A stretch of DNA of 64,000 bases. It comes from Deltaproteobacteria bacterium (lineage in GTDB: Bacteria > Myxococcota > Kuafuiibacteriia > Kuafuiibacteriales > Kuafuiibacteriaceae). The stretch's first letter is position 1, and each line of letters opens with the position of its first letter. The DNA lies in assembly GCA_040218735.1 (NCBI GenBank), contig JAVJQW010000023.1, positions 576,001 to 640,000 on the forward strand, written 5' to 3'. Below the pieces are notes generated by a model. It made no database searches and had not been told where the DNA came from. It was given only the letters and a program-made list of their open reading frames with translations. A program made the translations under genes and the position numbers. Below, piece after piece: positions 39,500-64,000 of the stretch.

Positions 39500-39830
39500 C
39501 AAGCTACCTTGCAATACCATGACACATTTGTGCCAGACACCCGCGTATACATGAGACAGAAGGCACGCATGACATGGTCTACGCGCCGAGCCGGGAGTCG
39601 ATCGGAGGTCGCCGAAGCTAGAGGATCCCGCGGACCTGCCCGGGTTCAGAGCGACACGAAGCCGATGGGCCCTGTGGGAATCGAACCCACGACCTTGGGA
39701 TAAAGATACTCGCGAGGATCGACGCAAACAGCCGGAACATGTCCGGTTGTTCCCGGGACGGGTGGCGCCTGTGGCAAATGCGTGCCGAGCTTAGGGCCGG
39801 CGCCTCAGATCTGTCCCGCACCGCCTGATT
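39500..39830. repeat. attP-like junction A: integrase-tail remnant + tRNA-Lys(TTT) 3'-half core (39666-39704, degenerate) + arm sequence
   Basis: Similar to 45740-46130 and 52400-52745; core TGGGCCCTGTGGGAATCGAACCCACGACCTTGGGA. Confidence 0.82.
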
Positions 39831-40124: not shown

Positions 40125-40418
40125 TTATTCCAACGCCCCCTCGGCCTCGAGCCACGCGCGAAGCTCCGCCCGAACCTCGTTGGCCTCCCCCGGACGTCCC
40201 TCACCGAAGTGAATCCAACCTTCCCGGGGTCGCCAGGTCCGAAGGTACTCGGTGATTTCTCCGCGGATCGAAGCAGGGACCGCCGACCAGAGCACGGCGC
40301 GCTCCTCGGAGCCCGCGAGCACGCGCATCACCGCCCACTGGATTTCGTCATCGGTGTAGAGCCCCACATCGTACGCCGCGAGGATTGCCTTCAGGTCTTC
40401 GATCGTTGTCATCGTCAT
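40125..40418 (-). CDS. Putative immunity protein for the upstream RHS toxin
   Basis: 97 aa (MTMTTIEDLKAIL...), ATGA overlap with the RHS stop codon. Confidence 0.65.
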   Translation of the reverse strand: MTMTTIEDLKAILAAYDVGLYTDDEIQWAVMRVLAGSEERAVLWSAVPASIRGEITEYLRTWRPREGWIHFGEGRPGEANEVRAELRAWLEAEGALE

Positions 40419-43400: not shown

Positions 43401-43650
43401 CGGCCGAGCGCGTCCACGTGCGCCGTCATCGGCGTATCGGCGTGGACCAATGCAAGCGTGCGCGCGCGCTGCTGCTCGGCGCCTCCCGCCGCCGCCGTTC
43501 GCTCCCAGTCGGAGCCCACGACGGTGTCCGAACGGTCGCGCGTCACGTTCGACCAGGTTCGGTAGTCGATGCGCTCCTCGGTCCCGTCGCAGTACTGCAC
43601 CCGAGCTCGACGCCCGATCGGATCGTAGTGGGAGACCGAAGCCGGACGTG
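40415..43650 (-). pseudogene. 5'-truncated RHS/YD-repeat toxin (TcB-TcC fusion type) with HExxE metallopeptidase-like tip
   Basis: YD repeats, YEEYFPFG...RYSGEERDEETGFY, NPVTRRDADG core end, tip AHEMHEINALR. The frame extends upstream only to ~43663 (HYDPIGRR...), i.e. mid-protein, with no N-terminus. Confidence 0.82.
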
Positions 43651-45086
43651 ACAGTTGGGAGCTCTACCGGCGCCGCGACGACGCGGGAGAGATCGAAGCG
43701 ATCGAGACGCTGCACGTCCACGACGACCTGCGCCGAGTCGCCCTCGTGGAGACGCGAACGCGCCGCGAGCGCGCGGTCGAAGCGACGCCCTCTCCGCGCA
43801 CCCGGTATCAGCTCGACGACCACCTCGGCAGCGCGACGCTCGAGGTGGACGCCTCCGCGCAGGCCCGGGTTCTGACCTACGAGGAGTACGGGCCCTACGG
43901 TGCCGTCACCTACCGCGCGACGCGAGGCGGCGTCGATCTGTCGCCGAAGCGCTACCGCTACACCACGAAGGAGCGGGACGAAGAGACCGGCCTCGACGAC
44001 TTCGGCCAACGCCTCTACGCGAGCTGGCTCGCGCGGTGGGTATCGGCGGATCCCGCGGGGCTCATGGACGGGACGAACGTCTACGCGTACGTACGAGGAT
44101 CGCCGATGAACCTCGTGGACCCGGATGGCCTGGAGGGCGACCTCCCGGTCACGGCCTACCCCGAGCCGCCCAAGGGCGAGGTCAGCGGCGACGGGATTCA
44201 CGTCTTCCCGCACCCCGCCGACGACGGGACGCTGATGTGGCTGAAGCGCGAGGGCGGTCAGACGACGGACGCCGCCACGTTTGCGTTCCTCAACGAGAAC
44301 TACAACGACATCCTCGCGCGGGTCGGCGGCGACGAAGACGTTGCGCGCCGGCTCACGGAGGCCGCGACGGCGTTCAACGACTACATCGAGAGCCGCCTCT
44401 ACGCAGGCGAGAACCCGGTCGACGCGCGGAAGCGCTGGCTCGACGTGAACCTCGCGGAGGCCGCGGTCCACGGGTTCTTCTTCGGCGGGGACCCATCGTC
44501 GCCGGACTACGACGACAGCCGCAGCCTGATCGCCCTGGGCTTCAACCTTCTGCCGACGGCGTTTGCCATGCTGGCCGGGATGCGGAGCCGGCCGCGCCGG
44601 TCGTCACGCCGATCGGCCCGCGTGGTGATGGAGCGTGCGTTCCGCACGAAGGAGGAGTCTCAGGCGCCGGACTCGCGCGGGCTGTTCAAGAACCTGATTC
44701 CGAAGGACAAACCGCAGAGGGTGGAGTTCCAGACCGCCCGAGTCGCCGACGACGGAACGGTCACGGGCTTGACGAAGGTCCCCGATCGCCCGGTCGAGTT
44801 CGTTCGAATGCCGGGCGGCGAGCTTCGAATGGGCCGAGGCGGACACATCGATCTGTCGAACGGCGACCCCGTGAAGTTCGCGGGGCTCATCGAGGTCCGC
44901 CGCCGAGCCGACGGTTCGGTGTACGTCCTGGACTGGAACAACGCATCCGGTCATTACCGACCGGGTGCGGCCTGGGCGCGCCAGGCTGGGCTCCTGATGA
45001 ACAAGTTCAACGATGCGTCGCGAGCCTTCGCGATGTTCCGCAACCCCAATGCGAAGGTCTACCGTCGTTCGCAGCTCGGGAGGTGA
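43650..45086 (+). pseudogene. 5'-truncated RHS core + toxin tip with NxSGHYxP motif
   Basis: Frame reads WELYRRR...ETLHV from ~43655; YEEYGPYG...RYTTKERDEETGL, PMNLVDPDG, tip GHIDLSNGDPVKFAG...WNNASGHYRP. Confidence 0.82.
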
Positions 45087-45739: not shown

Positions 45740-46130
45740 CCGCAAGCTAGCTTGCAAGCTTGTGACACATTTGTGCCAGACACCCGCGTATCCATGAGAC
45801 AGATGGCACGCATGACACGGTCTACGCGCCGAGCCGGGAGTCGATCGAACGTCGCCGAAACGAAAGGGCCCCGCGGACCTGCGCGGGATCAGAGGGGGTC
45901 GCCACCCGAATGGGCCCTGTGGGAATCGAACCCACGACCTTGGGATTAAAAATACTCGCGAGGATCGACGTAAGCATACGGAGTATATGGAGTTGTGACT
46001 TTGAACGGGCGGCGCCTGTGGCAAATGTGTACCGAGCTTCGGGCCGACGGGCTTCGATCGGTCCCGCCCACCGTCCGCACTGTGCAGAGCGCATGGGCGC
46101 GTCCGCGTCCGGTTGGTTTTCGGACGAAGT
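45740..46130. repeat. attP-like junction B with tRNA-Lys(TTT) 3'-half core (45911-45951)
   Basis: Reverse complement of the core is TTTTAATCCCAAGGTCGTGGGTTCGATTCCCACAGGGCCCA (anticodon loop, T-arm, 3' acceptor strand). No tRNA 5' half. Confidence 0.88.
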
Positions 46131-46132
46131 TC

Positions 46133-46522
46133 GATAATCGGACGTTGGCGGACGCCACGGTCCTTACGCACACGACCGCACGCCCGGCACGGCGCTCGCG
46201 TCCGACGGACCGGTGTCCATCGCATGTACCGCCTACGTCCCAGGGACGAATCCAGCCGACGCCCTCGACCGGACCACCGGGTTCCCTGAGCCGCCAACTC
46301 GAGTTGCCGCTCGCTGGCTGATCCCCAAACGGCCTCGCACCATTCTTCAACGTGTCATCGCGTTCATGGACACGTGCGTTCAGCTCCTCCCAACGCGCCA
46401 GCCACAGACTCAACAACAGCCTCAACCGAGAAGGCGTGGCACGCCTTTGGTCGGGATCCATGCCGCCCACCGTCCCCCGCGCCATAGGAATCCGCGGATC
46501 TGCGCTTGAACGCCATATCCGG
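46133..46522 (+). mobile_element. Internally deleted (MITE-like) ISCR/IS91-family element
   Basis: Left end GTTC|GATAATCGGACG; transposase start fused directly to its end (GCCTACGTCC|CAGGGACGAATCC); right end GCGCTTGAACGCCATATCCGG|CCTG. Confidence 0.8.
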
Positions 46523-46671
46523 CCTGAGAGCCCCTCTTGTCCTTCCTATTCCCTTGAGTTTTAGACCATGATTGTATCAAGTATCATCGCGCGTTGGTCG
46601 CGCTGTTAGACTTCTGATTTCTAAAGCCACGCGAGCCCCTATCCTTTCCTCCATGCTTGAAGGCAATTGTC

Positions 46672-48651
46672 GTGCGACTCGAAAGTATCACGCTATCAGG
46701 CTTCCGTTGCTTCGGACCGGAGGCAATCACAATCCCTGTCAGCGCCGAGATCACGACCATTGTCGGCCCCAACGCGGCCGGCAAGACTGCACTGCTCCAG
46801 GCGCTCGCCAAGCTGTTCGGGGTCAGCCGGGCACAGCGCACCATTCATCGGTCGGATTTTCACATCGCCGTTGACGATGACCCAGACGATCGTGAGGCCA
46901 AGAACCTCGTCATCGACGTGCTCGTCGCGTTGCCCGAGCTCAAGGGCGGAACGGCAACGCCCGAAAGCGTTGCACCGTCGTTTCGGCATATGCTGATCGT
47001 GCGCAAAAACAAGGCGCCGGTCTGCCGTCTGCGCCTTGAGGCGCGATGGGAGGACGATGGAACCGTTGAGGGCGAGGTCTCGCAGGAACTTTTCTGGGTC
47101 GACACGCTCGACGATGATCCGAAGGACGACAAGAAGCATGCCACCGCCGCCGCCGATCGCGGCTTGATCCAACTCTACTACACGCCGGCGAACCGCGATG
47201 CTGGCGCACAGGTTCGAGCGACGGCCGGCGCCTTGGCCGCGCGCTTACTCCGCGCGATCGAATGGTCCGACGAGGCCCGCGAGAGCGTCGAGGAAGCGAC
47301 CGAGAGTCTCTCGGACGCCTTCGAGGGAGAAGCTGCGATCACGGCGATTGGCAAGGCGTTGCAGAAGCGCTGGGCGACGCTTCATGACGAGACGGTCGAC
47401 ACCAAACCGCGCTTGAGCCTGGTCAGCCGGCGGTTCGAGGAAGTGGTGAGCAAGATCGCCGTTATCTTCGAACAGGGCCCGGACGGGCGCGAGCGCGGAC
47501 TCGACGCACTCAGTGATGGCCAGCAATCCTTGTTCTACTTCGCTTTGGTCGCCGCCGTGTTCGACATGGAGCGGCAGGTCGCGACAGGTAAGGTAGACGG
47601 GTTCGACAAGGATCACTTGCGTATTCCGGCGTTGTCGGTCTTCGCGCTTGAGGAGCCGGAAAACCACCTGTCGCCATATTTCCTCGCGCGCATCGTTCGC
47701 CAGGTTCGCTCGCTCACTGCGGGGGGCAGCGCGCAGGCGCTCGTCACCAGCCATTCGCCGGCGGTGCTTAGCCGAGTTAAACCAGTCGAGGTGCGCTATT
47801 GCCGGTGTGACCCCGAAACCCGCGAATCCTCGGTCAAGAAGATCAAGCTTCCGACTAACAGGAGCGAGGAAGGCAAGTTCGTTCGCGGCGCGATGATGGC
47901 TTTCCCAGAGCTCTATTTCGCGCGCTTCGTATTGTTGGTCGAAGGCGATTCCGAGCGCGTCGTGCTCCCGCGTCTTGCCGAAGCGCTTGATCTACTGATC
48001 GACCCGGCGTTTGTCGCGATCGTCCCGCTCGGAGGTCGTCACGTCCAGCATTTCTGGCGCCTGCTGTCGCAACTCGACGTTCCCTACGCGACCTTGCTCG
48101 ACCTTGACCTCGGGCGGGCAGGAGGCGGCTTCGGGCGCATCAAGACCGCGATTGAAAAGCTGATCGACATGGGCGCCTCTAAGGCTGAGTTGCTCAACAC
48201 CGACAAAGGTATGTTGACCGATGCGGAGTTTGCAGCCATGCACACTTGGCAGGATGCGAAGAATCGCGAGCTCTTGAGCGGGTGGATCGACTGCCTCAAG
48301 GAACACGGCGTGTACTTTTCGGAGCCGCTCGATCTCGACCTGGCGATGCTCGCCGCCTTCGCCTCCGCCTACGAGGCGGTCATTCCTAAAGGCGGTGGCC
48401 CGAAAAACTCCAAGAAAGCCGCAGAGGCTGTGCTCGGAACCTCGGGGCCGGGAACAACGCTCTATTTGGGCCCATACAAGGATTACCCGCAGCTCTTTTC
48501 GGCCTATCGCTATCATTTCCTGACGCATAGCAAGCCCGTGACACATCTGGCGGCGCTCACGAAGATCAAGGACGGCGAGTTGAAGGCGAACATGCCGCGG
48601 GTGTTGGCGGAGGTTCTCGCTCATATCACGAAGCACCTCAGGCGGGATTGA
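46672..48651 (+). CDS. gajA: OLD-family ATP-dependent nuclease (ABC ATPase + TOPRIM), Gabija GajA-like
   Basis: MRLESITLSGFRCFG, GPNAAGKT, LSDGQQSL, LEEPENHL, VTSHSP, TOPRIM LLVEGDSE...LLDLD. Confidence 0.85.
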   Translation: MRLESITLSGFRCFGPEAITIPVSAEITTIVGPNAAGKTALLQALAKLFGVSRAQRTIHRSDFHIAVDDDPDDREAKNLVIDVLVALPELKGGTATPESVAPSFRHMLIVRKNKAPVCRLRLEARWEDDGTVEGEVSQELFWVDTLDDDPKDDKKHATAAADRGLIQLYYTPANRDAGAQVRATAGALAARLLRAIEWSDEARESVEEATESLSDAFEGEAAITAIGKALQKRWATLHDETVDTKPRLSLVSRRFEEVVSKIAVIFEQGPDGRERGLDALSDGQQSLFYFALVAAVFDMERQVATGKVDGFDKDHLRIPALSVFALEEPENHLSPYFLARIVRQVRSLTAGGSAQALVTSHSPAVLSRVKPVEVRYCRCDPETRESSVKKIKLPTNRSEEGKFVRGAMMAFPELYFARFVLLVEGDSERVVLPRLAEALDLLIDPAFVAIVPLGGRHVQHFWRLLSQLDVPYATLLDLDLGRAGGGFGRIKTAIEKLIDMGASKAELLNTDKGMLTDAEFAAMHTWQDAKNRELLSGWIDCLKEHGVYFSEPLDLDLAMLAAFASAYEAVIPKGGGPKNSKKAAEAVLGTSGPGTTLYLGPYKDYPQLFSAYRYHFLTHSKPVTHLAALTKIKDGELKANMPRVLAEVLAHITKHLRRD

Positions 48652-50558
48652 CGATGGGCGTTCTGGCGCGTCGGGTGCGACCCGAAGACTGGACGCCGGT
48701 CGGCGTAGACGAACTTGAGTCGAACGCGATGACAGTGGTGCGTTCGACCGAGAACCGGTCGGTCATCGCTGGTCCTGGTGCCGGCAAAACCGAGCTGCTG
48801 GCACAGCGCGCCGCGTATCTTCTCCGCACCGGAGCGTCGCTGGCGCCGCAACGGATCCTCGCCATCAGCTTCAAGCGGGACGCCGCGTCGAATCTGGGTG
48901 CGCGCGTGCGCAAGCGCTGTCATCGCCAGCACGCAGGCCGTTTCGATTCGATGACCTTCGATGCCTTCGCAAAGGGCTTGCTCGATCGCTTCGGGCAGGC
49001 CCTGCCGGAACAATGGCGTCCATCGCCAGACTATGAGATTTACTTCCCGACCGAGCGCGGCTACCGCGATTATCTTCAGCACACGCTTGGCGCTCCACCA
49101 AAGTGCGTCGGGACCTATGCCGATATTGTGACGCTGACTGTTGAGCGCTTCGAGCGGCGTTACCTTTTCGGGTCGCCCTTGCCGGTCGAGGGCTGGTCCG
49201 AGCCGTCGCCTGGGGAGTGGGCGGCCGACCAGTATTGGCAGTCGTCACTGCGCGGCGGCAAGAGAAGCCGTCTCTCCTTCCCCATGATAGGTCGTCTCGC
49301 CGAACTGCTGCTACGCCTCACTCCGATGGCGCGCGACGCGCTGCGTCTGACCTACTCACATCTGTTCATGGACGAGTTTCAGGATACGACGCAGGTTCAA
49401 TACGATCTGATGCGCGCGATATTTAATAGCGGCGACACGGTCATGACGGCCGTCGGCGACAATAAGCAACAGATCATGCGTTGGGCGATGGCGATGGACG
49501 ATCCGTTCGCGGCATTCGAAGCGGACTTCAAGGCAGTGCGCACGCCGCTCTTCAACAATTACCGCTCCTCGCCGGAACTTGTCCGCATCCAGCATATCCT
49601 GGCGCAAGCGCTGGATGCGAAGTCGGTGAAGCCGGTTTCAAAGAGCGCCGGCACGATCGCCGGTGACAGCTGCGCGATCTGGGATTTTTCATCGCCCGAA
49701 ACCGAGGCTCAGAAACTCGCCGAGTTTGTCGCGTCGGAGATGAAGGCGCACGAACTCGTTCCACGCGATTTCGTGCTACTCGCTCGCCAGAAGGCAGCCG
49801 ATTATGCGGCTGTACTCCAACCTGCTTTCGCGGCCGCAGGCATCCCACTGCGCAACGAGGCCGGTCAGGTTGGTGCGATCATGCTTCAGGATCTGCTCGC
49901 GGAGGAAGCATCCGCGCTCATCATGTGCGTGCTGCGGCTGGCGATGACGGTGCGCGCCGGTCGGCATTGGACGGAGTGTCGGGAAGCACTCGGCGCTCTG
50001 CGTGGCATCGGGCCGGACGACGAAGTCGCGCAAGGCCGCCTCGCACGCGAGTTGGATGTTTATGCCAGGCGTCTGAAATCAGATTATGTGATTGCGCCCG
50101 CCACCGAGCCGACTGCGCGCAAGCTCATTGACGACGTGCTTGAATTCATCGGCCGCGCCAGGCTTGTCGCCGCGCACCCAGCTTATGGGCAGGGAGATTG
50201 GCTGGAGAAAGTACTGGCTTCGGCGGCGGCGCATCTTGCTCAGTCAGCATCCGGCACGAAGGACTGGACCGCGACGCTTGATTTCTATGAGGGATTTCAT
50301 GCGATTCCGCTGATGACAATCCATAAAAGCAAGGGGCTTGAGTACCATACGGTGATCTTCGTCGGGCTCGACGATGGCGCCTGGTGGAGCTTTTCGGCCG
50401 ACCAGGTGGAGGCAACGGCCGGGTTCTTCGTTGCCTTCACGCGAGCCAAACAGCGAGTCGTCTTCACATACTGCGCGCGACGCGGAATGCGCACGAAGAT
50501 CGCCACTCTCTACGACATGCTTGCTCAAGCCGGTGTGCAGAACTTCTGGATTAGTTGA
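48648..50558 (+). CDS. gajB: UvrD/PcrA-like SF1 helicase, Gabija GajB-like
   Basis: AGPGAGKT, DEFQDT, VGDNKQQIM, NYRS, MTIHKSKGLEY, VAFTRAK; overlaps the OLD nuclease stop. Confidence 0.85.
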   Translation: MTMGVLARRVRPEDWTPVGVDELESNAMTVVRSTENRSVIAGPGAGKTELLAQRAAYLLRTGASLAPQRILAISFKRDAASNLGARVRKRCHRQHAGRFDSMTFDAFAKGLLDRFGQALPEQWRPSPDYEIYFPTERGYRDYLQHTLGAPPKCVGTYADIVTLTVERFERRYLFGSPLPVEGWSEPSPGEWAADQYWQSSLRGGKRSRLSFPMIGRLAELLLRLTPMARDALRLTYSHLFMDEFQDTTQVQYDLMRAIFNSGDTVMTAVGDNKQQIMRWAMAMDDPFAAFEADFKAVRTPLFNNYRSSPELVRIQHILAQALDAKSVKPVSKSAGTIAGDSCAIWDFSSPETEAQKLAEFVASEMKAHELVPRDFVLLARQKAADYAAVLQPAFAAAGIPLRNEAGQVGAIMLQDLLAEEASALIMCVLRLAMTVRAGRHWTECREALGALRGIGPDDEVAQGRLARELDVYARRLKSDYVIAPATEPTARKLIDDVLEFIGRARLVAAHPAYGQGDWLEKVLASAAAHLAQSASGTKDWTATLDFYEGFHAIPLMTIHKSKGLEYHTVIFVGLDDGAWWSFSADQVEATAGFFVAFTRAKQRVVFTYCARRGMRTKIATLYDMLAQAGVQNFWIS

Positions 50559-50687
50559 CGAGGAATCAATAGGAAGAGCAAACAGGCCTGCTCGAGTCGC
50601 CGCTGTGTCAGCGTAGATGCGCCTCGACCTGACCCCGAACCTGGGGGTGAGCGAGGCTTAAAGAAGGGGCGATCACTGGATGGTACC

Positions 50688-50808
50688 CCCGACCGAGCAG
50701 GCGCGGCACGCCCTCGGTCGGGATCCATGCCGACCCCGTGTGCGGCTCCACCCGGGTCCCAGAGGCAACTGCGGAGTTGCGCTTGAGCGTCCTATCCAGC
50801 CTATCCCG
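50688..50808 (+). mobile_element. Orphan ISCR-like right end (oriIS) without a transposase
   Basis: Hairpin CCCGACCGAG...CTCGGTCGGG and GCGCTTGAGCGTCCTATCCAG-CCTATCCCG|CTTG, similar to the ends at 46522, 54470 and 58796. Confidence 0.72.
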
Positions 50809-50849
50809 CTTGACGACGACCTGCGGGTGGGCACGCTGTGGCGCCTCCC

Positions 50850-51953
50850 ATGAGCGCCGACCTCGTCATTCCCTCCGACCTACTCCGACCGATCTACGAC
50901 CTCCTGAGAGTCATGCCGGGCACGGGCGGGATTCTCCGCGACCTTGGTGAGTTTCACCTCGTCCTCGATACGAACGTTTTGCTCGCTGACATTCGTTGGA
51001 TGATCCAGAAGGCTCGGAGCCCGGGCGTTCGGACCGCCCTCCTCGAGACACTCGAGTCGGGCACAACCGTGGGGTACTTTCCGGAGGAGGGGCTCGCGGA
51101 GATGAGCGCAAAGCTCGACGCGTTCTCCCAGCGCTACGCCATTCCGCGCGGCGACCTCGAAACAACGTGGCGGCGCTACCGGCTCCGCCTCCGCGTCCTG
51201 GCCACCACGGACGTGCCGCGGGCGCGCTATTTCGTCGCAAGCGCCCTCCGGGATCCGACGGACCTTCCGTTCGTGCTCCTCCATGCGTCCACCGGAACCG
51301 ACGCCGTCTGCAGCCGCGACAAGGACATACCGGCGGCCGGCGTCCCTACCGTCGATCCCCAGATCCTCGATCGAATTCGGCAGCTCGCACGCCACCAAGC
51401 GCCGCGCGCAGCGTTCGTGATCGTTGGCGCCTCCGTCGTCGTCGTCCCCGTCGCGTCGCTCCTCGCGGTCGGAGTCGGCACCGTCGATCTGTTCCGCCGC
51501 GCGCCCCGTTGGGCTCAGGTCCTGATCGGCGCGGGCGCGCTGACCTCGGTCGCGTACCCGCGGTCGCGGCGGTACCTCGCGCGAAACGTCCGGCAGGCCG
51601 CTTCGAAGTTGATTGAACTCGCGAGCGAAGCCGCTCCCATCCTCGTCGTGCTCCAGCAACACGCGGAGGATGGCCGTCACTCCGCCGCCTCCGTGAAGGC
51701 GGACATCGAAGCGACCGGTAACTTCGACGCACCCACGTCATCCGCCGCCGCCTTCAGAATCTGCGCGCGACGCGACACGCCTCTGACGCTCGAGCAAATC
51801 TCGCTCGACCTCGCCATAGAAGGCCTGGTCCACGAAGATCGCGAGGCCCTCGCACGTGCCCTGCACGAACACCCGCACCTGGAACGCCTCGCCGATGGCC
51901 GCTGGCGCAAGCGCGCCGCACGGGCTCCAGCTTCGTCGGCGCCCGCGCCGTGA
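50850..51953 (+). CDS. PIN-domain ribonuclease with two hydrophobic helices and a C-terminal wHTH-like region
   Basis: LVLDTNVLL, RDPTDLPFV, VCSRDKDI; hydrophobic AAFVIVGASVVVVPVASLLAVGVG and WAQVLIGAGALTSVAY. Confidence 0.75.
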   Translation: MSADLVIPSDLLRPIYDLLRVMPGTGGILRDLGEFHLVLDTNVLLADIRWMIQKARSPGVRTALLETLESGTTVGYFPEEGLAEMSAKLDAFSQRYAIPRGDLETTWRRYRLRLRVLATTDVPRARYFVASALRDPTDLPFVLLHASTGTDAVCSRDKDIPAAGVPTVDPQILDRIRQLARHQAPRAAFVIVGASVVVVPVASLLAVGVGTVDLFRRAPRWAQVLIGAGALTSVAYPRSRRYLARNVRQAASKLIELASEAAPILVVLQQHAEDGRHSAASVKADIEATGNFDAPTSSAAAFRICARRDTPLTLEQISLDLAIEGLVHEDREALARALHEHPHLERLADGRWRKRAARAPASSAPAP

Positions 51954-51975
51954 AGTACGCTCCCGTCGCTCCTTC

Positions 51976-52400
51976 ATGGAGACGAAGGAGGGCGACTCGA
52001 ACACCTCGGTACGTCGGCGCGTACGGGCGGAGGTGGAAGACCGGCGGTCCCGCGTCGAGGGCTTCTTCTGGTACCGCGGATGGCCGGACCCCGACGAGCT
52101 CGTCGACACGACGTTCGATCGCGCCGGGGGCCAAAGCTGGCCGCCGGTACGGAGCTCACGAGCGACGTACCTCGATACGCGCTCGGCGTCGCGTGTCGTC
52201 CACCTCGAAACAAACCACGGCGCGCGCCCAGAACGGACGTGCGCTTCGGACCGTGCAGACGCCACCGGACAAAACCGCGGAGCGCCTCGAACACGAGAAA
52301 CGACTGGCCGTGCTCGAGGGCTGCGTAATCGCAGTCGTCGACCGGATCTGCGCTCTCTGTGAGCCCCAGAACAGGGTCTCGTGCGAGCCCAGAAGTAGGA
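51976..52400 (+). pseudogene. Possible ECF sigma factor remnant
   Basis: Two frames give VEGFFWYRGWPDPDELVDTTFDRAG and AERLEHEKRLAVLEGCV; cut off by att junction C. Confidence 0.3.
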
Positions 52401-52745
52401 CTCAACGGCTCCAGAGAGACGAATGAGACCGATGGCACCGTCGCGCAACCGAGCTTGCAAAGACCGAAAGACGAAAAGGTCCCGCGAAGCTGCGCGGGAT
52501 CGAGGCGGTCGCCACCCAATGGGCCCTGTGGGAATCGAACCCACGACCTTGGGATTAAAAATACTCGCGAGGATCGACGTAAGCAGCCGGAACGTATTCG
52601 GTTGTGGCTCGGAACGGGCGGCGTCGGTGGCAAATGTGTACCGAGCTTCGGACCGATGCGCTCGGATCGATCCGACCCATCGTCAGCACTGTGCAGAACG
52701 CACGTCCGCGTCCGCGTCCGCGTCCGCGTGGTTTTCGGACGAAGT
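52400..52745. repeat. attP-like junction C with tRNA-Lys(TTT) 3'-half core (52520-52560)
   Basis: Core identical to B. Left flank (CAACGGCTCCAGAGAGACGAATGAGACCGATGGCACCGTC) recurs at the window end, downstream of the integrase. Confidence 0.88.
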
Positions 52746-52747
52746 TC

Positions 52748-54470
52748 GATAATCGGACGTTGGCGGACGTAACCGTCCAGACGCACACGACCTCACGCCC
52801 GGCACGGCGCTCGCGTCCGGCGGACCGGTGTCCATCGCATGTACCGCCTATGTCCAGGAGATCCGCGCGACGATCCCCTGCAAGCTCTGGTGAAGACGGC
52901 CTGGCCCCGCTACGTCGAGTTGTTCGAAGCCTCCGGAGGCACCGTCCCAAAGTTTGTGACCGCCGCCTTCGACAGCAACCTCAGGTACGGCCTCCCTGAG
53001 GAAGGCGGCTTCATCCGCCTCGGGTGCGCCAAGTGCGGCACCGAGCGTGCCCTGCCGTTATCCTGCAAGCGCCGAGGAATCCGTCCAAGCTGCGGCGCCC
53101 GTCGCATGCACGACCTCGCGCTACGTTTGGTGGAGCGCGTCCTTCCCGATGTCCCGATTCGCCAATACGTTCTATCACCGCCCTTCGAGCTCGTGAGCCT
53201 GCTCGGCGCCCGAACCGAGCCCTCGTCCGCGCTCGCGCGCATCTTCGTTCGCTGCATGTTCGACGCGATCGGCCGACGCATCGATTCGTGCGTTGCCGCG
53301 TACCCAGGTGCAGTCGTTGTGGTGCAGAGGTTCTCCAAAACGCTCGCGCTCTTTCCTCACCTCCATGTGCTCGCGTTGGACGGTGCGTACGTCGAGGTCG
53401 GCGACGAGCTCGAGTTCCGCTTCGATCCCGGGCCCACGCCCGACGACCTCCTCGACCTCGAAGACGAGGTGGAGCGTCGATTCTCGCGATGGCTCGAACA
53501 GCATGGCTATCTCGAGGAGGACGAGGAGGCCCTCGACGGCTGGTTCGGTCCCGCGGCCTACGACACCGTTCAAGGACACCGTCCACCCGCAAAGCCGCAC
53601 GACCCCTTCCGCTTTCAAGTGCACGCTACAGTTCGTGTGCCGGCGGGTGATCGCCCGGGACGAGAACGACTCTGCACCTACGTCGCTCGACCGCCAGTGG
53701 CGGAGGCTCAGATCGAGCCCGTCGATGAAGACCGAGTCCGCCTCTGGCTTCGCAATCCGGGACGAAGCCCCGCCAGCAGCGTCGTCCTCACCTCGGTGCA
53801 GCTCTAGACCGAGGCGCGCCGCGAATGCGGCATGTCCGAGGGCTGTGCCAAGCGCTCCCGCGAAAGCGGGAGGACGTTGTGGTCATTCGCCGCCTCGCCT
53901 GGCAGGTTCCGCCCCCCAACCTCCACCTCGTCCGCTACGCCGGCATCCTCGCCCCCGCGGCTCGACGGCGTCATCGCGTCGTACCTGCGGGACGGGTCGC
54001 CATCCAGGCCGCATGGTTCGGCGCGAGGAAGTTCGAGCCACTCGTTCCCGTTCCGTCCCGGACCGCCTGGGCGAGGCTTTTTGCGAAGGTGTACGATGTC
54101 GACGTCCACCAGTGCCCAGATGCCAAGCTCCGATGCGCCCCATCGGTACGGTACTTCCACCCCGCGCCCGCGCCTGGATCGAACAGGGACGAATCCAGCC
54201 GATGCCCTCGACCGGACCACCGGGTTCCCTGAGCCGCCAACTCGAGTTGCCGCTCGCTGGCTGATCCCCAAACGGCCCCGCACCATTCTTCAACGTGTCA
54301 TCGCGTTCATGGATACGTGCGTTCAGCTCCTCCCAAACGCGCCAGGCCACCGACTCAACAACAGCCTCAACCGAGAAGGCGTGGCACGCCCTTGGTCGGG
54401 ATCCATACCGCCCCACCGTCCCCCGCGCCCCAGAGGCAGCCGCGGATCTGCGCTTGCACGCCCTATCCGG
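52748..54470 (+). mobile_element. ISCR/IS91-family rolling-circle element, copy 1 (inactive)
   Basis: GTTC|GATAATCGG left end; oriIS-like GCGCTTGCACGCCCTATCCGG|CATC right end. Confidence 0.85.
52828..54264 (+). pseudogene. IS91/ISCR HUH transposase, disrupted
   Basis: Zn-binding CAKC...SCKRRG, HUH PHLHVL, RLCTYVARPP. Frameshift near the start, two Cys substituted, 80-bp insertion at 53805-53884 and further indels. Confidence 0.88.
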
Positions 54471-54725
54471 CATCTTCGTGCTCCCGGTGATCTTCGAGCG
54501 GTGGGGCACGGCGTCGACCGAGCCCGACTGATGCGTCCGCTCGTCTGGTGTTTGTTGTCGGCCGCGCTCTTCGGCGTGCCGACCCGGGTTGCTCTACGTC
54601 GGCGCCGCCGTGGTCTTCGGCGCCCTCCGCGATCGCGGACGACTCGCCGCAGCCCTGCAGAATCGAGCCCGTCTCCGGGCACGGTGGCAATGAATCCTGG
54701 AGGCAACCGCGGCGTCGAAGGCCCC

Positions 54726-55676
54726 ATGTCACTGTCCCATCTCCTGAAGGCCAAGGACGTCCGAGCGCAGCTGAACCGAATCACGCCCGACTACCGTCGT
54801 ACGCTCTCTGCGACGACGAACGTCGAGAAGTTGGGCGGCCCCCATCAGCTCATCGGCACCGCATTCGACTACGCGCTTCGATTCGAGATTGGACGACGAT
54901 GCCCGTCCGCGCGCGGCGAGCGTTGGGTAGCCGAGAATGGCGTGAGGCGTCTGGAGCTTGGTCGAGCCTTGGCGGGGACGGCCACGCTCCTCTCGACGCC
55001 CAAGCTGTCGGGGCCTTCACGAGACCTGGACCGCCTCGCCCGAAGGGCGCGGCGATGGATAGACGCAGCGCGCGAGCAAGTACCGACCTATCAGAGTATC
55101 CGAGCCGTTCGACGCTCCGACCTGACTGTGCTCGCCGAACTGACGCTAACGCTCGCGAGACTCGACGTGGTGGCTCGTTGCGGCGATCCCAGCGCCCTGC
55201 GCAGCGAGCCGAGTGCAGAGGAGCGCGAAGAGCTCGTCCGACTGCTGGAGGTCGTTCCTTTCCAGCGACTCGCCCTCGCCGGGGACGTCTTCCTCAATCC
55301 AACGTTCTCGAGCGCCTCGGAAGCGGTCGGCGGCGCGGACGCGGATCTCGTCATCGACGGACGCCTCCTGGACATCAAGACGCTGGCGAATTCGTTCATC
55401 GAGCGACCAGCTGTCCACCAGCTCCTGGGTTATCTGATGCTCGCGCGTCATGCGCGACGCCGCGACACCGCCTTTCCTCGGATTCGATCGGTCGGCTTGT
55501 ACTTCGCGCGACAGGCCGCCATCTGGGAAATCGACGTCGAGCCCATCGTGAGATCAGAGACATTCGCGGACGTCGAACGCTGGTTCGCCGCACGTGCCCG
55601 CTTGGACCAGCCTGCTCCCCGAGCCCGGAGTCGTCCCCGGGCCGACCGCGTTGCGCCTGACACGACCGAGCGCTAG
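54726..55676 (+). CDS. PD-(D/E)XK (Cas4/RecB-like) nuclease
   Basis: C-terminal part of ORF 53832..55676 from ATG 54726: IGTAFDYALR, FLNPTF...GGADADLVIDGRLLDIKT...QLLGY. Confidence 0.78.
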   Translation: MSLSHLLKAKDVRAQLNRITPDYRRTLSATTNVEKLGGPHQLIGTAFDYALRFEIGRRCPSARGERWVAENGVRRLELGRALAGTATLLSTPKLSGPSRDLDRLARRARRWIDAAREQVPTYQSIRAVRRSDLTVLAELTLTLARLDVVARCGDPSALRSEPSAEEREELVRLLEVVPFQRLALAGDVFLNPTFSSASEAVGGADADLVIDGRLLDIKTLANSFIERPAVHQLLGYLMLARHARRRDTAFPRIRSVGLYFARQAAIWEIDVEPIVRSETFADVERWFAARARLDQPAPRARSRPRADRVAPDTTER

Positions 55677-55688
55677 CATTTGCGACGC

Positions 55689-55765
55689 GCGGGGGTAGCT
55701 CAGTGGTCAGAGCACCGGACCAATAATCCGGGGGTCAGGGCGTTCAATTCCTCTCCTCCGCATCA
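55689..55765 (+). tRNA. Atypical tRNA or pseudo-tRNA, anticodon AAT (Ile)
   Basis: Acceptor GCGGGGG/CCTCCGC, D-stem GCTC/GAGC, anticodon stem CCGGA/TCCGG with loop CCAATAA (C33, not U33), T-loop TTCAATT with a bulged T-stem, 3' end ATCA rather than ACCA. Confidence 0.7.
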
Positions 55766-55769
55766 CGAC

Positions 55770-57050
55770 ATGCTGAAATGGCAGGCGGCACATGAGGCTT
55801 GGCAGTCGTTCATGGAGCGACTTACGACGGTTCAGCGCGAGCTTCATTGTTCGTATCGGAATGCGTGGTTTCGAGGCCATCCCGATGCGAACTACAAGCT
55901 AACACCATCGATTCTTCGCCAGGCCCCCCCGCCCGGCCTCGGCGAACTGTCGAAGATGAACAGCCACCGCGGCCCGACATCTGAAGAACTGCGCCGCCCC
56001 AAACCGATGGTCATCGATGGTCTCGAGCCCGTCGACGGGCCGCCGGCGGAGGCTAACTCCGCGAAACGCCACCGGGTCGTCGACGAGCGCAAGCTCGACT
56101 CGACAGAGAAGTTCCTCGAAACGGATGTTCGTAGCGATCTCCGGAGCACGCGTGCAGCACTCGCCAACGCTCTCAACTCGATCGAAGCGTCGTCGGCCGA
56201 GCTCCGTGAGATCAGCCAGCAACTCCAACAGAAACGGGACCGCATCTTCCGGGACGTGCTCATCGCTCGAAGGCGCGACCTCAAGAACAGCATGAGCGAC
56301 GCTCGAGGCACCATCGCGTCTGAGCGCGATAGAATCCTCGTCCTCCGGTCGATCTGCTACGGAGAGCGTGACACGCTGCTGGCCTTTCGCCACCGGAGCA
56401 GCGCGGTGCTCGCGGAGTCGTCATCTTGGGTCACGCTTGCCGCGATGCAGCACCACGGCGTTCCGACAAGGCTCCTCGACTGGACGACTTCCGCGGGCGT
56501 TGGCCTTTACTTTGCCGTGAAGTCGATCCGGGAGCGAATGATCTCGAACCGCGGCTCTATCGAGAACTGGCTCGAGTCGAACTGGGGTGAAATCGACCTT
56601 CGGGAGTTCGACGGTTTGCCTCTTCCGTGCCTTTGGGTTCTCAATCCATACTTCCTCGCTCGGCGCACAACGGGTCAAAATAGAATCGAGGATCCAACTC
56701 TCCGGCCCGACCTCGACTACCTTCTGGCGTTCCACGAGAATCTTTCGTGGCCTTACAACGGTGCCGTCCCGGTCCTCATTCCGTGGCGGTCCGAACGGAT
56801 CTTCGCGCAACGCGGCGTCTTTACGGTTCATGGCCGAGACACACGACCATTGGAGTGTCAGGTGCCGGTCATGGGTGGAGCGGACGCACCACTTCTCGCC
56901 TCCGTCCCCTTGGGTCTCGAGGCGGCCGTGTACGCCGTCCGGCATATCGTCCAGTTCATTGGGCTCGATCAGTTCACGGTATTCCGAGGCGAGGACGACC
57001 TCGGCACATCGATACGGGATCGACACATCGCGCGTGTGGAAAGCGGTTGA
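55770..57050 (+). CDS. FRG-domain protein with a large coiled-coil insertion
   Basis: WFRGHPDANYKLTPSILR...AAMQHHGVPTRLLDWT...RIFAQRGVFTVHG. ATG 55770 used because the ORF-track start lies upstream and runs through the tRNA-like element. Confidence 0.85.
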   Translation: MLKWQAAHEAWQSFMERLTTVQRELHCSYRNAWFRGHPDANYKLTPSILRQAPPPGLGELSKMNSHRGPTSEELRRPKPMVIDGLEPVDGPPAEANSAKRHRVVDERKLDSTEKFLETDVRSDLRSTRAALANALNSIEASSAELREISQQLQQKRDRIFRDVLIARRRDLKNSMSDARGTIASERDRILVLRSICYGERDTLLAFRHRSSAVLAESSSWVTLAAMQHHGVPTRLLDWTTSAGVGLYFAVKSIRERMISNRGSIENWLESNWGEIDLREFDGLPLPCLWVLNPYFLARRTTGQNRIEDPTLRPDLDYLLAFHENLSWPYNGAVPVLIPWRSERIFAQRGVFTVHGRDTRPLECQVPVMGGADAPLLASVPLGLEAAVYAVRHIVQFIGLDQFTVFRGEDDLGTSIRDRHIARVESG

Positions 57051-57132
57051 ACTACCAACTGCATCCGAATCTCCAGGACTTCTCCACCCCGCCTCCAAGT
57101 CTTCGCGCCGCCGGACGGCGATACTCCTCATC

Positions 57133-58796
57133 GATAATCGGACGTTGGCGGACGCCACGGTCCATTCGCACACGACCTCACGCCCGGCACGGCGCTCGCG
57201 TCCGGCGGCCCGGTGTCCATCGAATGCACGGCCTACGTCCCACGAGATCCGCGCAACGGTCCCCTTCATCCTCTCGTGAAGGCGGCCTGGCCTCGCTTCG
57301 TCGAGCAACTCGAAGCCTCCGGAGGCACCGTCCCGAAGTTCGTGACCGCCGCCTTCGATAGCTACCTCAGGTGCGGCCTCCCCGAGGAGGGCGGCTTCAT
57401 CCGCCTCGGGTGCACCCAGTGTGGCAACGAGCGTGCACTTCCGTTGTCCTGCAAGCGCCGAGGAATCTGTCCGAGCTGCGGCGCTCGTCGCATGCACGAC
57501 CTCGCGCAACGTCTGGTCGAGCGCGTCCTCCCCGACGTCCCGATTCGTCAGTACGTCCTATCACCGCCCTCCGAGCTCGTGGGCCTGCTCGGCGCTCGAA
57601 CCGAGCCCTTGTCCGCGCTCGCGCGCGCCTTCGTTCGCTGCATGTTCGACGCGATCGGGCGGCGGGTCGATGCGGGCGTTGCCGCGCACCCCGGTGCGAT
57701 CGTCGTGGTGCAGAGATTCTCCAAGACGCTCGCGCTCTTTCCTCACCTTCACGTGCTCCGCATTGGACGGAGCGTACGTCGAGGTCGGCGACGAGCTCGA
57801 GTTCCGCGTCGATCCCGGCCGCACACCCGACGACCTCCTCGACCTCGAAGACGAGGTGGAGCGTCGATTCTCGCGATGGCTCGAACAGCATGGCTATCTC
57901 GAGGAGGACGACCAGGACGAGGAGGCCCTCGACGGCTGGTTCGGCCCCGCGGCCTACGACACCGTTCAAGGACACCGCCCGCCCGCGAAGCCTCGCGACC
58001 CCAACCGCTTTCAGGTGCACGCCCGTGTTCGCGTAAGAGCCGGTGATCGCCCAGGCCGCGAACGACTCTGCACCTACGTCGCTCGACCGCCAGTGGCGGA
58101 GGCTCAGATCGAGCCCCTCGATGAAGACCGAGTCCGCCTCTGGCTCCGCAATCCGGGTCGAAGTCTCGCCAGCAGCGTCGTACTCACCTCGATGCAGCTC
58201 ATTCGCCGCCTCGCCTGGCAGGTTCCGCCCCCCAACCTCCACCTCGTTCGCTACGCCGGCATCCTCGCCCCCGCGGCTCGACTACGTCAACGCGTCGTAC
58301 CTGCGGGACGGGTCGCCATCAAGGCCGCATGGTTCGGCGAGAGGAAGTTCGAGCCACTCGTTCCCGTCCCGTCCCGGACCGCCTGGGCGAGGCTGCTGGC
58401 GAAGGTCTACGAGATCCACGCTCACCAGTGCCCCAGATGCCACGCTCCCATGCGCCCCATCGCCGCGGTCCTTCCACCACAGGCCCGCGCCTGGATCGAA
58501 CAGGGACGAATCCTGCCCATGCCCTCGACCGGACCACCGGCCCTCGTGAGCCGCCAACTCGACCTGCCGCTCGTTGCGTGATCCCAAACGGCCCCCGCAC
58601 CCATTCCTCAATGCGTCGTCGCGTTCATGGATACGTGCGTTCAGAGCCGCTCAACTCGCCCCCCGCCACCGCAAAGACGGCCTCCGACCGAGCCGGCGCG
58701 ACACGCAATCGGTCGGGATCCAAGCCGACCGAGGGCGTGCCGCTCCCCACGAGTCCCAGAGGCAGCCGCGGAATTGCGCTTGGATGCCCTATCCCG
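57133..58796 (+). mobile_element. ISCR/IS91-family rolling-circle element, copy 2
   Basis: CATC|GATAATCGG left end; oriIS-like GCGCTTGGATGCCCTATCCCG|CTTC right end. Confidence 0.85.
57213..58581 (+). pseudogene. IS91/ISCR HUH transposase with one apparent +1 frameshift (~57759)
   Basis: YLRCG..EGGFIRLGCTQC...SCKRRGICPSCG and PHLHVL, then a frame switch to ALDG...RLCTYVARPP...HLVRYAGILAP...CPRC. Extra C relative to copy 1. Confidence 0.88.
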
Positions 58797-58833: not shown

Positions 58834-60297
58834 TCAGCCTTTGGAAAGGTCGCTTGGCTTGGGAAGGCAGCCTCGAACGACGACCACGCCCAGGAGGACT
58901 GACAATCCCTCGCCGACGGGAGGAGCAACTGCGCGCAGGCCGATGTCGTTGACAACGAGCCCGGGAGCGGCGGTCTTCTGGCTGCCGTCCAGCACACAGA
59001 GCGCACCAAAGCGTCGATCGCTCGCAACCACATACTGCGCCGTTTGGCCGAAGTATTTTGTGCACGAATCCAGGCTGAAGGCTGAATCGTTGTTCTCAAC
59101 TTTTAGTTCGAGCCGGATCTTCCGAAACGAGAGATCAGTTTCGCCTCCCCCAGCAGCAGGATGCTCTTCAAGCTCCCCGCCGATCCGCGGATCGAGTCTC
59201 AAGATATCTCTCAATCGTTCCTGGAACTCACGCTCCAGGATCTGTTCGTCAAAAAGGTCGTCCTGCAGCGCCTGTTGAGCCAGACGACAGACGCCGGTCA
59301 TCAAAACCAAGAAGTCGCCAAGCTCGCGGTCTGAGACTCCGGCAAAACTTCGGGCGTTGTTCCGAAGGTCGAGAAGGGCGTTGTCGACTCCCGCGTAGCC
59401 GCTGATCGGGTTGGTTGCAGGATCATGACTCTGCAAATAGAGCTGACGCTGTCCCACCACCTCCAAACGATCGGGCGCCTGCTCGAATCGCGCTCGATAT
59501 GAGAACTGGAGGGGCCGAGACGGCAAACTCTGCCCGACCTTCAATAGCAACCTGCCCGTCGCGGTCAGCCTATAGGGTGCCGCCCCCGTAGAGGGTCTAT
59601 CGATCTCGAACACCGGTAGCTGACAGACCTCGGGCGGTTCGACTGTAATCGGTTCAAGCACGAGCTTGCCATTGCTGGGGTTCCACCGGGAGACCGACAC
59701 GTCGACTGAGAGGTCTTGAACCAGATCGACCGTCACCGTATGTGGTTCCTGAACGGCTGCATCGTCTAGTCTAAATTCTGTGAACACAACGGTGGTCGAC
59801 TCGACGGACTCATGCTCCTCCGTTTTGCGTCTCGGGACCTGTGGCGTCACGCGACTAGTTATGGGCAAAGGGAGACTCAGCAACGAAAGCGATCCGGCAA
59901 GAGCGGCAACATCCTCAACTTCTTCAATTGAAAGAATCTGCTCGATGTGCGGCTTGAATTGAACGCCCCGGGCTTCGTCGTCGCCATCTCGCGCAACATC
60001 CTTGGCGTTGGTCTTGGCGGCCTTGAGGAAACGATCCGCATCGACTTCTGCACTGCGAACCGCATGTCCCCAACGCAGCAGGTCAAGAAAGCAGTGCAAA
60101 AGCGCGCGGTAGCGACGGTATACTTGAGCCGCGCTAGTCTCGCCAACCTCGGAAATCTCCTCGCCGAGTCCTGTGACCGCGTCCGACAGATCCGAGAGGA
60201 CGTCATCACGGCCAGCAGCCTTCCTGAGAAGGCTAACGATTTCAGCCCGGCGGGGGGATATGGTTAAAAAGGCCCCGCTTCTTCTCTCGCCGCTCAT
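58834..60297 (-). CDS. Protein with C-terminal restriction-endonuclease-like PD-(D/E)XK domain
   Basis: EREFQERL...AGGGETDLSF...LELKVE...GQTAQY...LCVLDGSQK. GC visibly lower than in the eCIS region. Confidence 0.7.
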   Translation of the reverse strand: MSGERRSGAFLTISPRRAEIVSLLRKAAGRDDVLSDLSDAVTGLGEEISEVGETSAAQVYRRYRALLHCFLDLLRWGHAVRSAEVDADRFLKAAKTNAKDVARDGDDEARGVQFKPHIEQILSIEEVEDVAALAGSLSLLSLPLPITSRVTPQVPRRKTEEHESVESTTVVFTEFRLDDAAVQEPHTVTVDLVQDLSVDVSVSRWNPSNGKLVLEPITVEPPEVCQLPVFEIDRPSTGAAPYRLTATGRLLLKVGQSLPSRPLQFSYRARFEQAPDRLEVVGQRQLYLQSHDPATNPISGYAGVDNALLDLRNNARSFAGVSDRELGDFLVLMTGVCRLAQQALQDDLFDEQILEREFQERLRDILRLDPRIGGELEEHPAAGGGETDLSFRKIRLELKVENNDSAFSLDSCTKYFGQTAQYVVASDRRFGALCVLDGSQKTAAPGLVVNDIGLRAVAPPVGEGLSVLLGVVVVRGCLPKPSDLSKG

Positions 60298-62803: not shown

Positions 62804-62893
62804 GCTCTTCGTCTCGGACTTTCCGAGACATGCGAACCTAGTCGCGGGTCGGCCGCGTGGCAACGCTGGTCCCCTCTGTTTTCAGGCGTTCAA

Positions 62894-64000
62894 ATGAGCA
62901 GCGGCCCGGGCCGAGTCGGATGCTCAGCGATTCTCCTGCCGCACGTCTCCGCGACAAACGACCTCGTAGTCCTCCGACGGCACGACGCTCCCATTCAGCA
63001 CCGGTTTCGAGCAGCCCGCGCCACGCTCGGACGAGCGCTAGCCACGTCGGTCGCCGCCCTCACCGAGCTGTCGCGCGCCGGGCGGCGTAGCGAGGCCACC
63101 GTCGACTTCCATCGCCGTAAGGCCGGACACCTCGTTCGCATCTTCGAGCAGGGCGGCACTGCCCCGTACCCGCTGAAGACGCTGACGCCGCGTGAGGTCG
63201 ACGCCTACATCTCTCAGCGCCGCGCCGAGGGAGGCCGAGAACACGATCAGCAAGGAGCTCGTGGTCCTTCGGAAGGCTCTGAAGTTAGCGAGGCACAACG
63301 GCGAGTGGGCGGGCGACGTCAACGCCGTGCTGCCGGTCGGCTTCTCGCCAGCGGTACCGCCCACGGGAACGGTTCCTCACCGCAGAGGAGGTGACGGCCT
63401 TGCTCGGGGAGCTGCCGGCCGACCGCGCGGCGCGGGTCGCGTTCATTCTGGCGACCTCCTCGTCATGGGGCCCGACCGACCGAGCGCGGCGGGCCGACGT
63501 CTCCGCCGACCTCTCGCGCGTCCACATCCGACGTACCAAGCGCAGCACCCGAGACCGCGTCGTACCGATCGTCCTCCTGGCGCACCGCGAGCTACTCGAG
63601 TTCGCCGTGCGCCACGCCGGGGGCACGAACGGCCTGCTGTTCCAGCGGTGGAGCAACCACGGTCGTGACATCAGGGCCGCCTGCAAGCGAGCAGGCATCG
63701 CCCCGTGCTCCCCGAACGACCTGCGCCGGACGTTCGGCGTTTGGCTTCGCGCCTCCGGCGCGCCGCCCGATCTGATCGCCCCTTGCATGGGGCACAAGGA
63801 CAGCACAATGGTCGAGCGCGTCTACGGACGACTCCCGCCGGAGCTGCTGGCCGCGCGCATCCAAGACGCCGTGTCGCAGTCCTCGACCGCTTCTACGCTG
63901 CCTGTAGGCCTCCAGGACTGTGTCAAACATGTACCAGACACATGCGATTCAACGGCTCCAGAGAGACGAATGAGACCGATGGCACCGTCTCGCAACCGAG
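62894..64000 (+). pseudogene. Tyrosine recombinase/integrase, 5'-truncated and frameshifted
   Basis: Pieces across frames: VDAYISQRRAEG / ENTISKELVVLRKALK / RFLTAEEV...SPNDLRRTFG...MGHKDSTMVERVY. Shifts at ~63230 and ~63360; continues into att-flank sequence at the window end. Confidence 0.82.

Follow-up and report, generated by a model that had tools for sequence, protein, structure and literature searches.

We analyzed a 64,000-nt stretch of DNA, hereafter referred to as the window (GenBank assembly GCA_040218735.1, contig JAVJQW010000023.1, positions 576,001-640,000, forward strand), from the 11.6-Mb, high-G+C genome of a Deltaproteobacteria bacterium placed by GTDB in the Myxococcota (Kuafuiibacteriia; Kuafuiibacteriales; Kuafuiibacteriaceae). 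Part of this window is occupied by related copies of an ISCR-like insertion sequence (IS), interspersed with an anti-phage Gabija operon and other accessory genes and set among repeats of a tRNA-Lys gene (Table 1). An initial annotation, made from the sequence alone, had described this arrangement as an ISCR-type gene-capture system assembling anti-phage cassettes inside tRNA islets, with units of cargo plus origin mobilized in trans. Comparisons were made with a 7.3-Mb genome of the same family (G012), with a genome of the same genus (G001) and with read-level data for other public runs (X2, X3 and X5), in the form of assembled Logan contigs.

Partial copies of the tRNA-Lys 3' end lie at ~39.66, 45.9 and 52.5 kb and have in common a downstream hairpin and an adjoining stretch of DNA, hereafter the arm. 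Together with the intact gene just past the window, these copies (three partial, one intact) are direct repeats bounding tandem islets, and the region is a set of three tandem integrative islets at tRNA-Lys, which bears out the tRNA islet setting of the initial annotation. Given these repeats and the adjacent tyrosine integrase gene, the outer boundaries of the islets are integrase-made attachment-site (att) repeats and only the inner ones are IS ends. The first islet contains RHS-type open reading frames (ORFs); the second, a mini IS, a Gabija operon, an IS right-end remnant and a PIN_3 protein; and the third, a first full IS, a 316-aa protein, a tRNA, an FRG protein, a second full IS and an OloB/OloA-like pair.

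Table 1. Features of the tRNA-Lys islets, in window positions.
Feature	Position	Strand	Remarks
Partial tRNA-Lys 3' fragment and first ~120 nt of arm	39627-39819	-	Leftmost att-type repeat; no IS beside
Terminator-like hairpin, partial tRNA-Lys 3' fragment and 183-bp arm	45860-46132	-	Ends GTTC at IS left end
Mini element	46133-46522	+	~108 bp from the left end joined to ~282 bp from the right end; internal-deletion derivative; closest to 52748-54470 copy
Gabija operon	GajA 46657-48651, GajB 48648-50558	+	GajA, ATPase plus TOPRIM nuclease; GajB, UvrD-like helicase; PADLOC 3.8e-247 / 2e-225, full length; 4-nt overlap
Right-end-only remnant	50668-50808	+	~140 bp; 9-nt tandem tip duplication; separate lineage
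PIN_3-domain protein	50838-51953	+	Two hydrophobic stretches; without PADLOC match
Terminator-like hairpin, partial tRNA-Lys 3' fragment and arm	52471-52747	-	Ends GTTC at IS left end
Full-length IS	52748-54470	+	1723 bp; transposase interrupted by ~85-bp dispersed repeat at ~53800-53885
Fossil flank	54471-54583	+	113 nt; 86% identical to C58 gene junction (3' end of an ORF and start of the next)
316-aa protein	54726-55676	+	D..DIK motif; weak PDC-S61 match (8.3e-7)
tRNA, anticodon AAT, read as Ile	55689-55762	+	Rfam tRNA, 54 bits; gathering score 29
FRG-domain protein	55770-57050	+	PADLOC PDC-S15, 1.5e-28; listed ORF starts at 55680
Full-length IS	57133-58796	+	1664 bp; transposase frameshifted near 57758; 93% identical to C42:9723-11358
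Olokun-like pair	OloB-like 58834-60297, OloA-like 60242-62863	-	1.1e-29 / 1.3e-17
Tyrosine-integrase catalytic part	63391-64000	+	Pfam Phage_integrase; frameshifted; ORF continues to 64134, past the window
Intact tRNA-Lys(TTT)	64068-64140	-	Window-equivalent position, just past the end; adjoins integrase gene

Ends, transposase and copies of the ISCR-like element

A right-end consensus allowing up to two mismatches matched the window four times, always on the plus strand, at sites ending at 46522, 50799, 54470 and 58796, while shuffled sequences gave a mean of 0.05 matches and none of 100 shuffles reached four. The left-end motif GATAATCGGACG was found three times (starts at 46133, 52748 and 57133), with a chance expectation of 0.31. 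The four right and three left ends listed in the initial annotation were in this way recovered far above chance, and the tetranucleotides it had given beside them were borne out at the window ends. Its right end at 50808 corresponds to the outer tip of a tandemly duplicated end, in which the consensus match itself stops at 50799 and is followed directly by a 9-nt copy of the tip (CCTATCCAG CCTATCCCG).

The right end, of the replication-origin (oriIS) type, lies downstream of the transposase gene and consists of a subterminal hairpin and the tip ...GCGCTTGnnnGnCCTATCCnG; at the left end, of the termination (terIS) type, (GT/CA)TC is followed by the GATAATCGGACG of the element. The two ends are unrelated in sequence and have no terminal inverted repeats. 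All eight related right ends retain a subterminal hairpin of 13 pairs and, close to the tip, a second stem, but a double change is seen at only one pair, and the hairpin hence shows conservation, not covariation. In the IS91 family, oriIS is described as containing subterminal palindromes and as being abutted by a target tetranucleotide (PMC13181058; here and below, statements from published work refer to the available portions of the cited texts).

The left and right flanks differ for the mini copy (GTTC/CCTG), the 52748 copy (GTTC/CATC) and the 57133 copy (CATC/CTTC), and no target-site duplication is therefore present. All eight related right ends are followed by a C, which may belong to the element. 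At one of the four window ends (50791-50808) the outermost 8-9 nt of the tip are present twice in tandem, and at two of 17 right ends in G012 (region positions 106392 and 109585) the flank repeats TATCGGCC; tip duplications of this kind may be traces left when the origin was nicked and resealed. Folds of the left ends were no better than those of shuffled sequences (z of -0.03, -1.60, 0.68 and -0.23), and outward promoters were unsupported, a promoter scan giving one site (46560-46587) versus a shuffle mean of 1.7.

The two transposase fragments matched the Pfam domains Y2_Tnp (PF04986; 8.4e-10 and 2.7e-15) and Zn_Tnp_IS91 (PF14319; 5.1e-9), which are also present in 120 homologues among the matches listed. 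The best NCBIfam model, ahead of transpos_IS91, was ISCR_clade_Ia, both for the window fragment (5.4e-46) and for P0002 (2.5e-68), an intact 434-aa homologue that is 75% identical and served as query. With bit scores of 157.2 and 230.9, respectively, far under the curated cut-off of 925, the element is related to ISCR_clade_Ia and not a member of it. A tblastn comparison of P0002 with the plasmid-encoded transposases of ISCR1 and ISVsa3 (ISCR2) gave 30-35% identity over 92-98% of P0002. The aligned motifs include HxH and an RLCTY that reads RLCRY in ISCR1, ISVsa3 and a third plasmid transposase annotated as IS91 family, the single Tyr of RLCxY forming an invariant column in all eight aligned sequences. 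Right termini read from two plasmid records (ISCR1, ...TTTATACTTCCTATACCC; ISCR2, ...GCGTTTATTCTTCCTATAC) have in common with the tip found here, TGCGCTTGnACGCCCTATCCGG, a CCTAT-type end and part of the preceding stretch. On the strength of its domains, best NCBIfam profile, identity to known transposases, aligned RLCxY motif and CCTAT-type tip, the element is ISCR-like, as the initial annotation had it, and by these sequence criteria it is an undescribed ISCR-group IS of the IS91 family whose transposase is predicted to be a single-Tyr HUH rolling-circle enzyme. Classical IS91 and IS801 have two-Tyr enzymes and a clear CTTG/GTTC target.

Repeat finding and alignment identified two full-length copies, one mini copy and one orphan right end in the window, the same inventory as in the initial annotation. 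A whole-genome census found seven complete right ends, four in the window and three in C42:1-11,400, and three left ends, all in the window, so that right limits are precise and left ends vary or are absent. None of the three full transposase genes in the genome is intact, each being frameshifted or interrupted, including that of the C42:9723-11358 copy, which is frameshifted and has a left tip short by ~22 nt, and the IS copies in the window are now inactive. Comparison of the last ~135 nt of the right ends resolved three groups: the mini element, the 52748 copy and a G001 copy (84-91% identity); the 57133 and C42 copies (96% identity); and the 50808 remnant, with 67-78% identity to every other right end. 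The divergence of these three lineages indicates that the four window ends are separate old arrivals, not local duplications. A scan of a species-level genome collection for the exact right-end pattern returned a single record beyond the genome itself, a 3.6-kb contig of a metagenome-assembled genome, and a protein-based search of genome contigs with the transposase fragment found no related loci.

The ~85-bp repeat inside the 52748-54470 copy has 16 further matches in the genome, distributed over 12 contigs at 76-90% identity, which marks it as a small dispersed repeat of the repetitive extragenic palindromic or miniature inverted-repeat transposable element type; the fragment C16:6031-6227 has the same repeat/IS junction. 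Right-end-only pieces of ~380 bp from two genomes (C42:3405-3786, on the minus strand, and G001:C773:1245-1625) start within ~15 nt of the same internal IS position, and this agreement suggests a preferred internal stop site.

Carried flanks and the arrays of a related genome

Several junctions of the element involve DNA that is found elsewhere in the genome. The C42:9723-11358 copy retains 172 bp of the arm at a site without a tRNA fragment, and the C42 right end abuts a ~230-nt fragment of an ftsH protease domain, 70% identical to a locus on C23. In the window, the match of the 113-nt fossil flank to the C58 gene junction begins at the exact base where the IS ends (54470).

A related IS in G012, with the right tip ...GATTGATTGCCCTATCGGCC, is present there in at least 40 right-end copies, many of them near-identical (86-96% identity), and its full-length copies are 96-99.9% identical. 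A 120-kb region of this genome (G012:C5:3028001-3148000) contains 17 intact co-oriented right ends, one degenerate right end and one on the opposite strand; in the 17 copies, the right limits are precise to a few bases and the left limits are variable. A unit of 6,410 bp, comprising two IS copies and two further ORFs, is present in duplicate at 99.86% identity and terminates precisely at a right end. One ORF of this unit, 382 aa in length, contains three to four tandem 243-bp repeats (region positions 12015-12806). Full right ends with a right-end fragment immediately behind them were seen at two places in G012 (fragments of 81 and 195 nt) and in one X2 contig (144 nt), and together with the one-orientation arrays they fit insertion beside resident right ends. 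As judged from these comparisons, the junctions and the G012 duplication suggest that this IS lineage has carried flanking DNA. The G012 IS may represent a recently active ISCR-type family suited to experiments, and if G012 holds an intact transposase, ISCR movement would be directly testable there.

The same mosaics might have arisen with IS copies that moved nothing, the modules having been shuffled by the integrase at the att repeats and by homologous recombination between IS copies. The four att-type tRNA-Lys repeats that bound the islets fit this alternative, and so does the position of both islet-proximal IS copies, whose left ends lie at an identical spot of the arm, 183 bp from the tRNA fragment. 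Contigs of runs X2, X3 and X5 likewise span the tRNA-fragment-arm-IS junction, at ~90-95% identity and without the window cassettes, and beyond the right end those of X3 and X5 continue into different DNA. Passive transport has an experimental precedent in the GIsul2 integrase, which moves the ISCR2-related CR2-sul2 unit between att sites, and the available text of the same source describes rolling-circle movement of ISCRs as lacking experimental demonstration (PMC9376610). For most IS801 fragments, too, rearrangement is the favored explanation (PMC3189936). Shuffling accounts poorly, however, for the C42 copy, which took the arm to a site without a tRNA fragment, and for the G012 duplication, whose limit matches a right end to the base and which holds two copies, while the combination of precise right and variable left limits in the 17 G012 copies points to initiation at one fixed end. 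We regard it as unlikely that the copies were passengers throughout.

Defense genes and the proposed capture of cassettes

Surrounding the three other complete right ends of the genome are genes of the IS3-type, IS21 and IS66 kinds, together with a sigma-factor fragment and that of ftsH, and PADLOC found no defense match in the 10 proteins beside them. Ten neighbors of four further fragments (C57, C16, C42:515k and G001:C773) gave two PADLOC rows, both of which were rejected, one being the cyclic-nucleotide-binding domain of a mechanosensitive-channel protein and the other a weak mad8 match (3.4e-6). None of the 20 proteins beside other IS copies is a convincing defense neighbor, and the association of defense genes with other oriIS copies, whose absence the initial annotation had named as a refutation of its own proposal, is largely unsupported.

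In the G012 array, the 68 ORFs yielded one PADLOC row each for IetA, IetS, AbiEii, DrmD, LmuB, mad3, TRIP13 and PDC-M63A; LmuB and mad3 fall on the same protein, and 6 to 8 of the 68 ORFs match defense profiles. Pfam identified five IS66, three IS110-type, Tn3 and IS21 transposases among these ORFs, along with an aminopeptidase, Hsp33, a beta-lactamase-family protein, GTP cyclohydrolase and others. In this array a right-end remnant lies 126 bp downstream of the IetA/IetS operon, echoing GajB in the window, which has its remnant after 110 bp. A second copy of the IetAS block was not found in all of G012, where only its right-end remnant recurs, and DNA searches of five relatives (one of the same genus, 75% complete) did not find the window cassettes. 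We conclude that the IS elements associate with accessory, transposon-rich islands in which defense genes are one component, and that the link with defense probably reflects the island and not a preference of the IS.

These surveys bear on the proposal that a working ISCR-type capture platform assembled the anti-phage cassettes, with units of cargo plus oriIS mobilized in trans and stacking head-to-tail. The layout of the window is suggestive of such a platform, given that the Gabija, PIN and nuclease-tRNA-FRG cassettes each lie between two co-oriented right ends, in an ISCR28-like arrangement (PMC12772301), that the cassettes differ in G+C (0.61, 0.67, 0.64 and 0.58), and that right ends from three lineages amount to separate arrivals. 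The defense operons followed closely by remnants in both genomes, the right-end fragments behind full right ends in G012 and X2, and the 6.4-kb G012 unit, taken as a recent movement of two copies with their cargo, can be read in the same way. The proposal is harder to reconcile with the lack of convincing defense proteins beside other copies (0/20) and with a G012 array made up mostly of IS66, IS110, Tn3, IS21 and miscellaneous genes. No cassette is duplicated, the local transposases are all broken, the outer boundaries are att repeats, and the exact right end occurs in just one other record of the genome collection. On these counts the defense-specific capture system of the initial annotation is not upheld; its proposal is partly supported as regards the architecture of the cassettes and the capacity of the lineage for capture, and finds no support as regards a system that is specific for defense or currently active. 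A working platform behind these cassettes appears doubtful to us.

As a whole, we favor the explanation that the copies are ISCR relics in integrase-built islets, left by a flank-carrying lineage without a preference for defense genes, and we would give it a probability of about one half. A tyrosine integrase would have built the tandem array of three islets at tRNA-Lys, carrying accessory genes that included defense systems, and IS copies from three diverged lineages would have entered this array, all in one orientation. In the IS91 model, replacement synthesis begins at oriIS, crosses the gene and reaches terIS, and when terIS is missed the DNA beyond it is carried along (PMC13181058). Since read-through passes terIS, a cassette would travel with the next downstream right end and not with the preceding one. 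Three of the cassettes have a downstream right end, and the Olokun-like pair is without one. Blocks consisting of a cassette and its downstream right end may then have been brought in by one-ended transposition, landing beside a right end already in place, much as this would work in published ISCR sandwich structures; the candidate blocks are Gabija with the remnant and nuclease-tRNA-FRG with the 57133-58796 copy. The IS-free arm at 39.7 kb is not resumed after any right end, and for this reason no inserted block could be delimited.

Several observations weigh against flank-carrying relics as the explanation. Both the arm-IS combination at C42 and the gene fragments at right ends could also stem from recombination, and most IS801 fragments in genomes are probably rearrangements (PMC3189936). 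The arms at 46 and 52 kb are 82.5% identical and the adjoining IS parts 93-94%, a mismatch that makes the history of the arm-IS junction ambiguous. The tetranucleotides after the eight right ends (CCTG, CTTG, CATC, CTTC, CAAG, CCAG, CGTG and CTGA) show no clear consensus, CTTG and CTTC each being present at one of the eight, and no target tetranucleotide is evident in the 17 G012 right-end flanks. With no second copy of any window cassette anywhere searched, none of them has been shown to move with an IS end. Finally, the defense surveys, of 20 and 68 proteins, were small and had no matched control.

A broader reading would make ISCR-like elements a general gene-capture platform in this group of high-G+C Deltaproteobacteria-type bacteria, in which units of cargo plus right end insert beside resident right ends, and the resulting long arrays of a single orientation (four ends in the window, at least 40 right ends in G012) recruit defense operons (Gabija, IetAS) and ride integrase islets. 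We consider this speculative and quite improbable; if true, such a platform would be a non-clinical counterpart of ISCR resistance arrays, with an integron-like role for immunity genes.

Related systems and details of the cargo

The element resembles ISCR1 and ISCR2 (ISVsa3) in its transposase (30-35% identity over 92-98%), with RLCxY and HxH motifs, in the CCTAT-type right terminus downstream of the gene, in the presence of truncated right-end-only copies and in the location of cassettes beside its ends. It differs from them in its cargo, which is anti-phage or accessory and not made up of antibiotic-resistance genes, in its high-G+C 11.6-Mb host genome, with relatives whose proteins carry the label Deltaproteobacteria, in that all copies are broken, and in its distance from clade Ia (231 vs. 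925 bits). Like the ISCR28 sandwich, the cassettes lie as cargo between two co-oriented right ends of which one is a remnant (PMC12772301), but neither a circular form nor a second copy of a sandwich was found here. The joints listed in the Logan contigs, with no ori-ter joint among them, connect the two IS copies or relatives of these, in line with mosaic relatives. Discrete right-end-only pieces (~140 and ~380 bp) have counterparts of 229, 360 and 679 nt in IS801 (PMC3189936), and some IS801/IS91 copies also carry flanking DNA (PMC3189936; PMC13181058), whereas the right-end flanks described here lack a clear tetranucleotide. In common with GIsul2, an ISCR-type element resides in an island built by an integrase and carrying more than two att sites, from which the integrase could move sub-units (PMC9376610); GIsul2, however, inserts at guaA with sul2, and the islets described here lie at tRNA-Lys, with a pseudogene integrase and defense cargo.

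ISCRs are blamed for assembling resistance arrays, yet their rolling-circle movement is undemonstrated experimentally as far as the available text of PMC9376610 reports. The lineage described here offers natural evidence on this point, in its exact right and variable left limits, in the flanks it has carried and, in G012, in a 6.4-kb unit duplicated at 99.86% identity. The window further indicates that defense systems can occupy the same sandwich layout as resistance genes, which bears on how defense islands are built. Literature searches combining ISCR/IS91 with defense found no paper on ISCR capture of defense systems.

The cargo listed in the initial annotation mostly stands, with the exception of the frame of the nuclease ORF, the start of the FRG gene and a restriction endonuclease-HEAT cassette, whose genes match OloB and OloA. 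A 370-aa ORF at 54548-55660 was discarded because it lies out of frame and owes its length to high G+C (0.72/0.72/0.56 G+C at the three codon positions); the coding frame downstream of the IS is that of 53832-55676, and 54726-55676 is the likely gene. Its 316-aa product has no sequence relative in the PDB, and we take its D..DIK motif to be PD-(D/E)xK-like. The OloB and OloA matches fall on adjacent genes, with partial coverage of the profiles and without Pfam support. In the first islet, the two ORFs at positions 40415-45086 are fragments of polymorphic-toxin type and not defense genes; the minus-strand one (1061 aa) has RHS repeats and the plus-strand one (446 aa) an RHS-associated core domain.

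The FRG gene probably begins only past the tRNA, at ~55770. A34 Ile tRNAs are unusual in bacteria, and the AAT-anticodon tRNA, located between the nuclease-like and FRG genes, is unique among the 79 tRNAs that ARAGORN finds in this genome.

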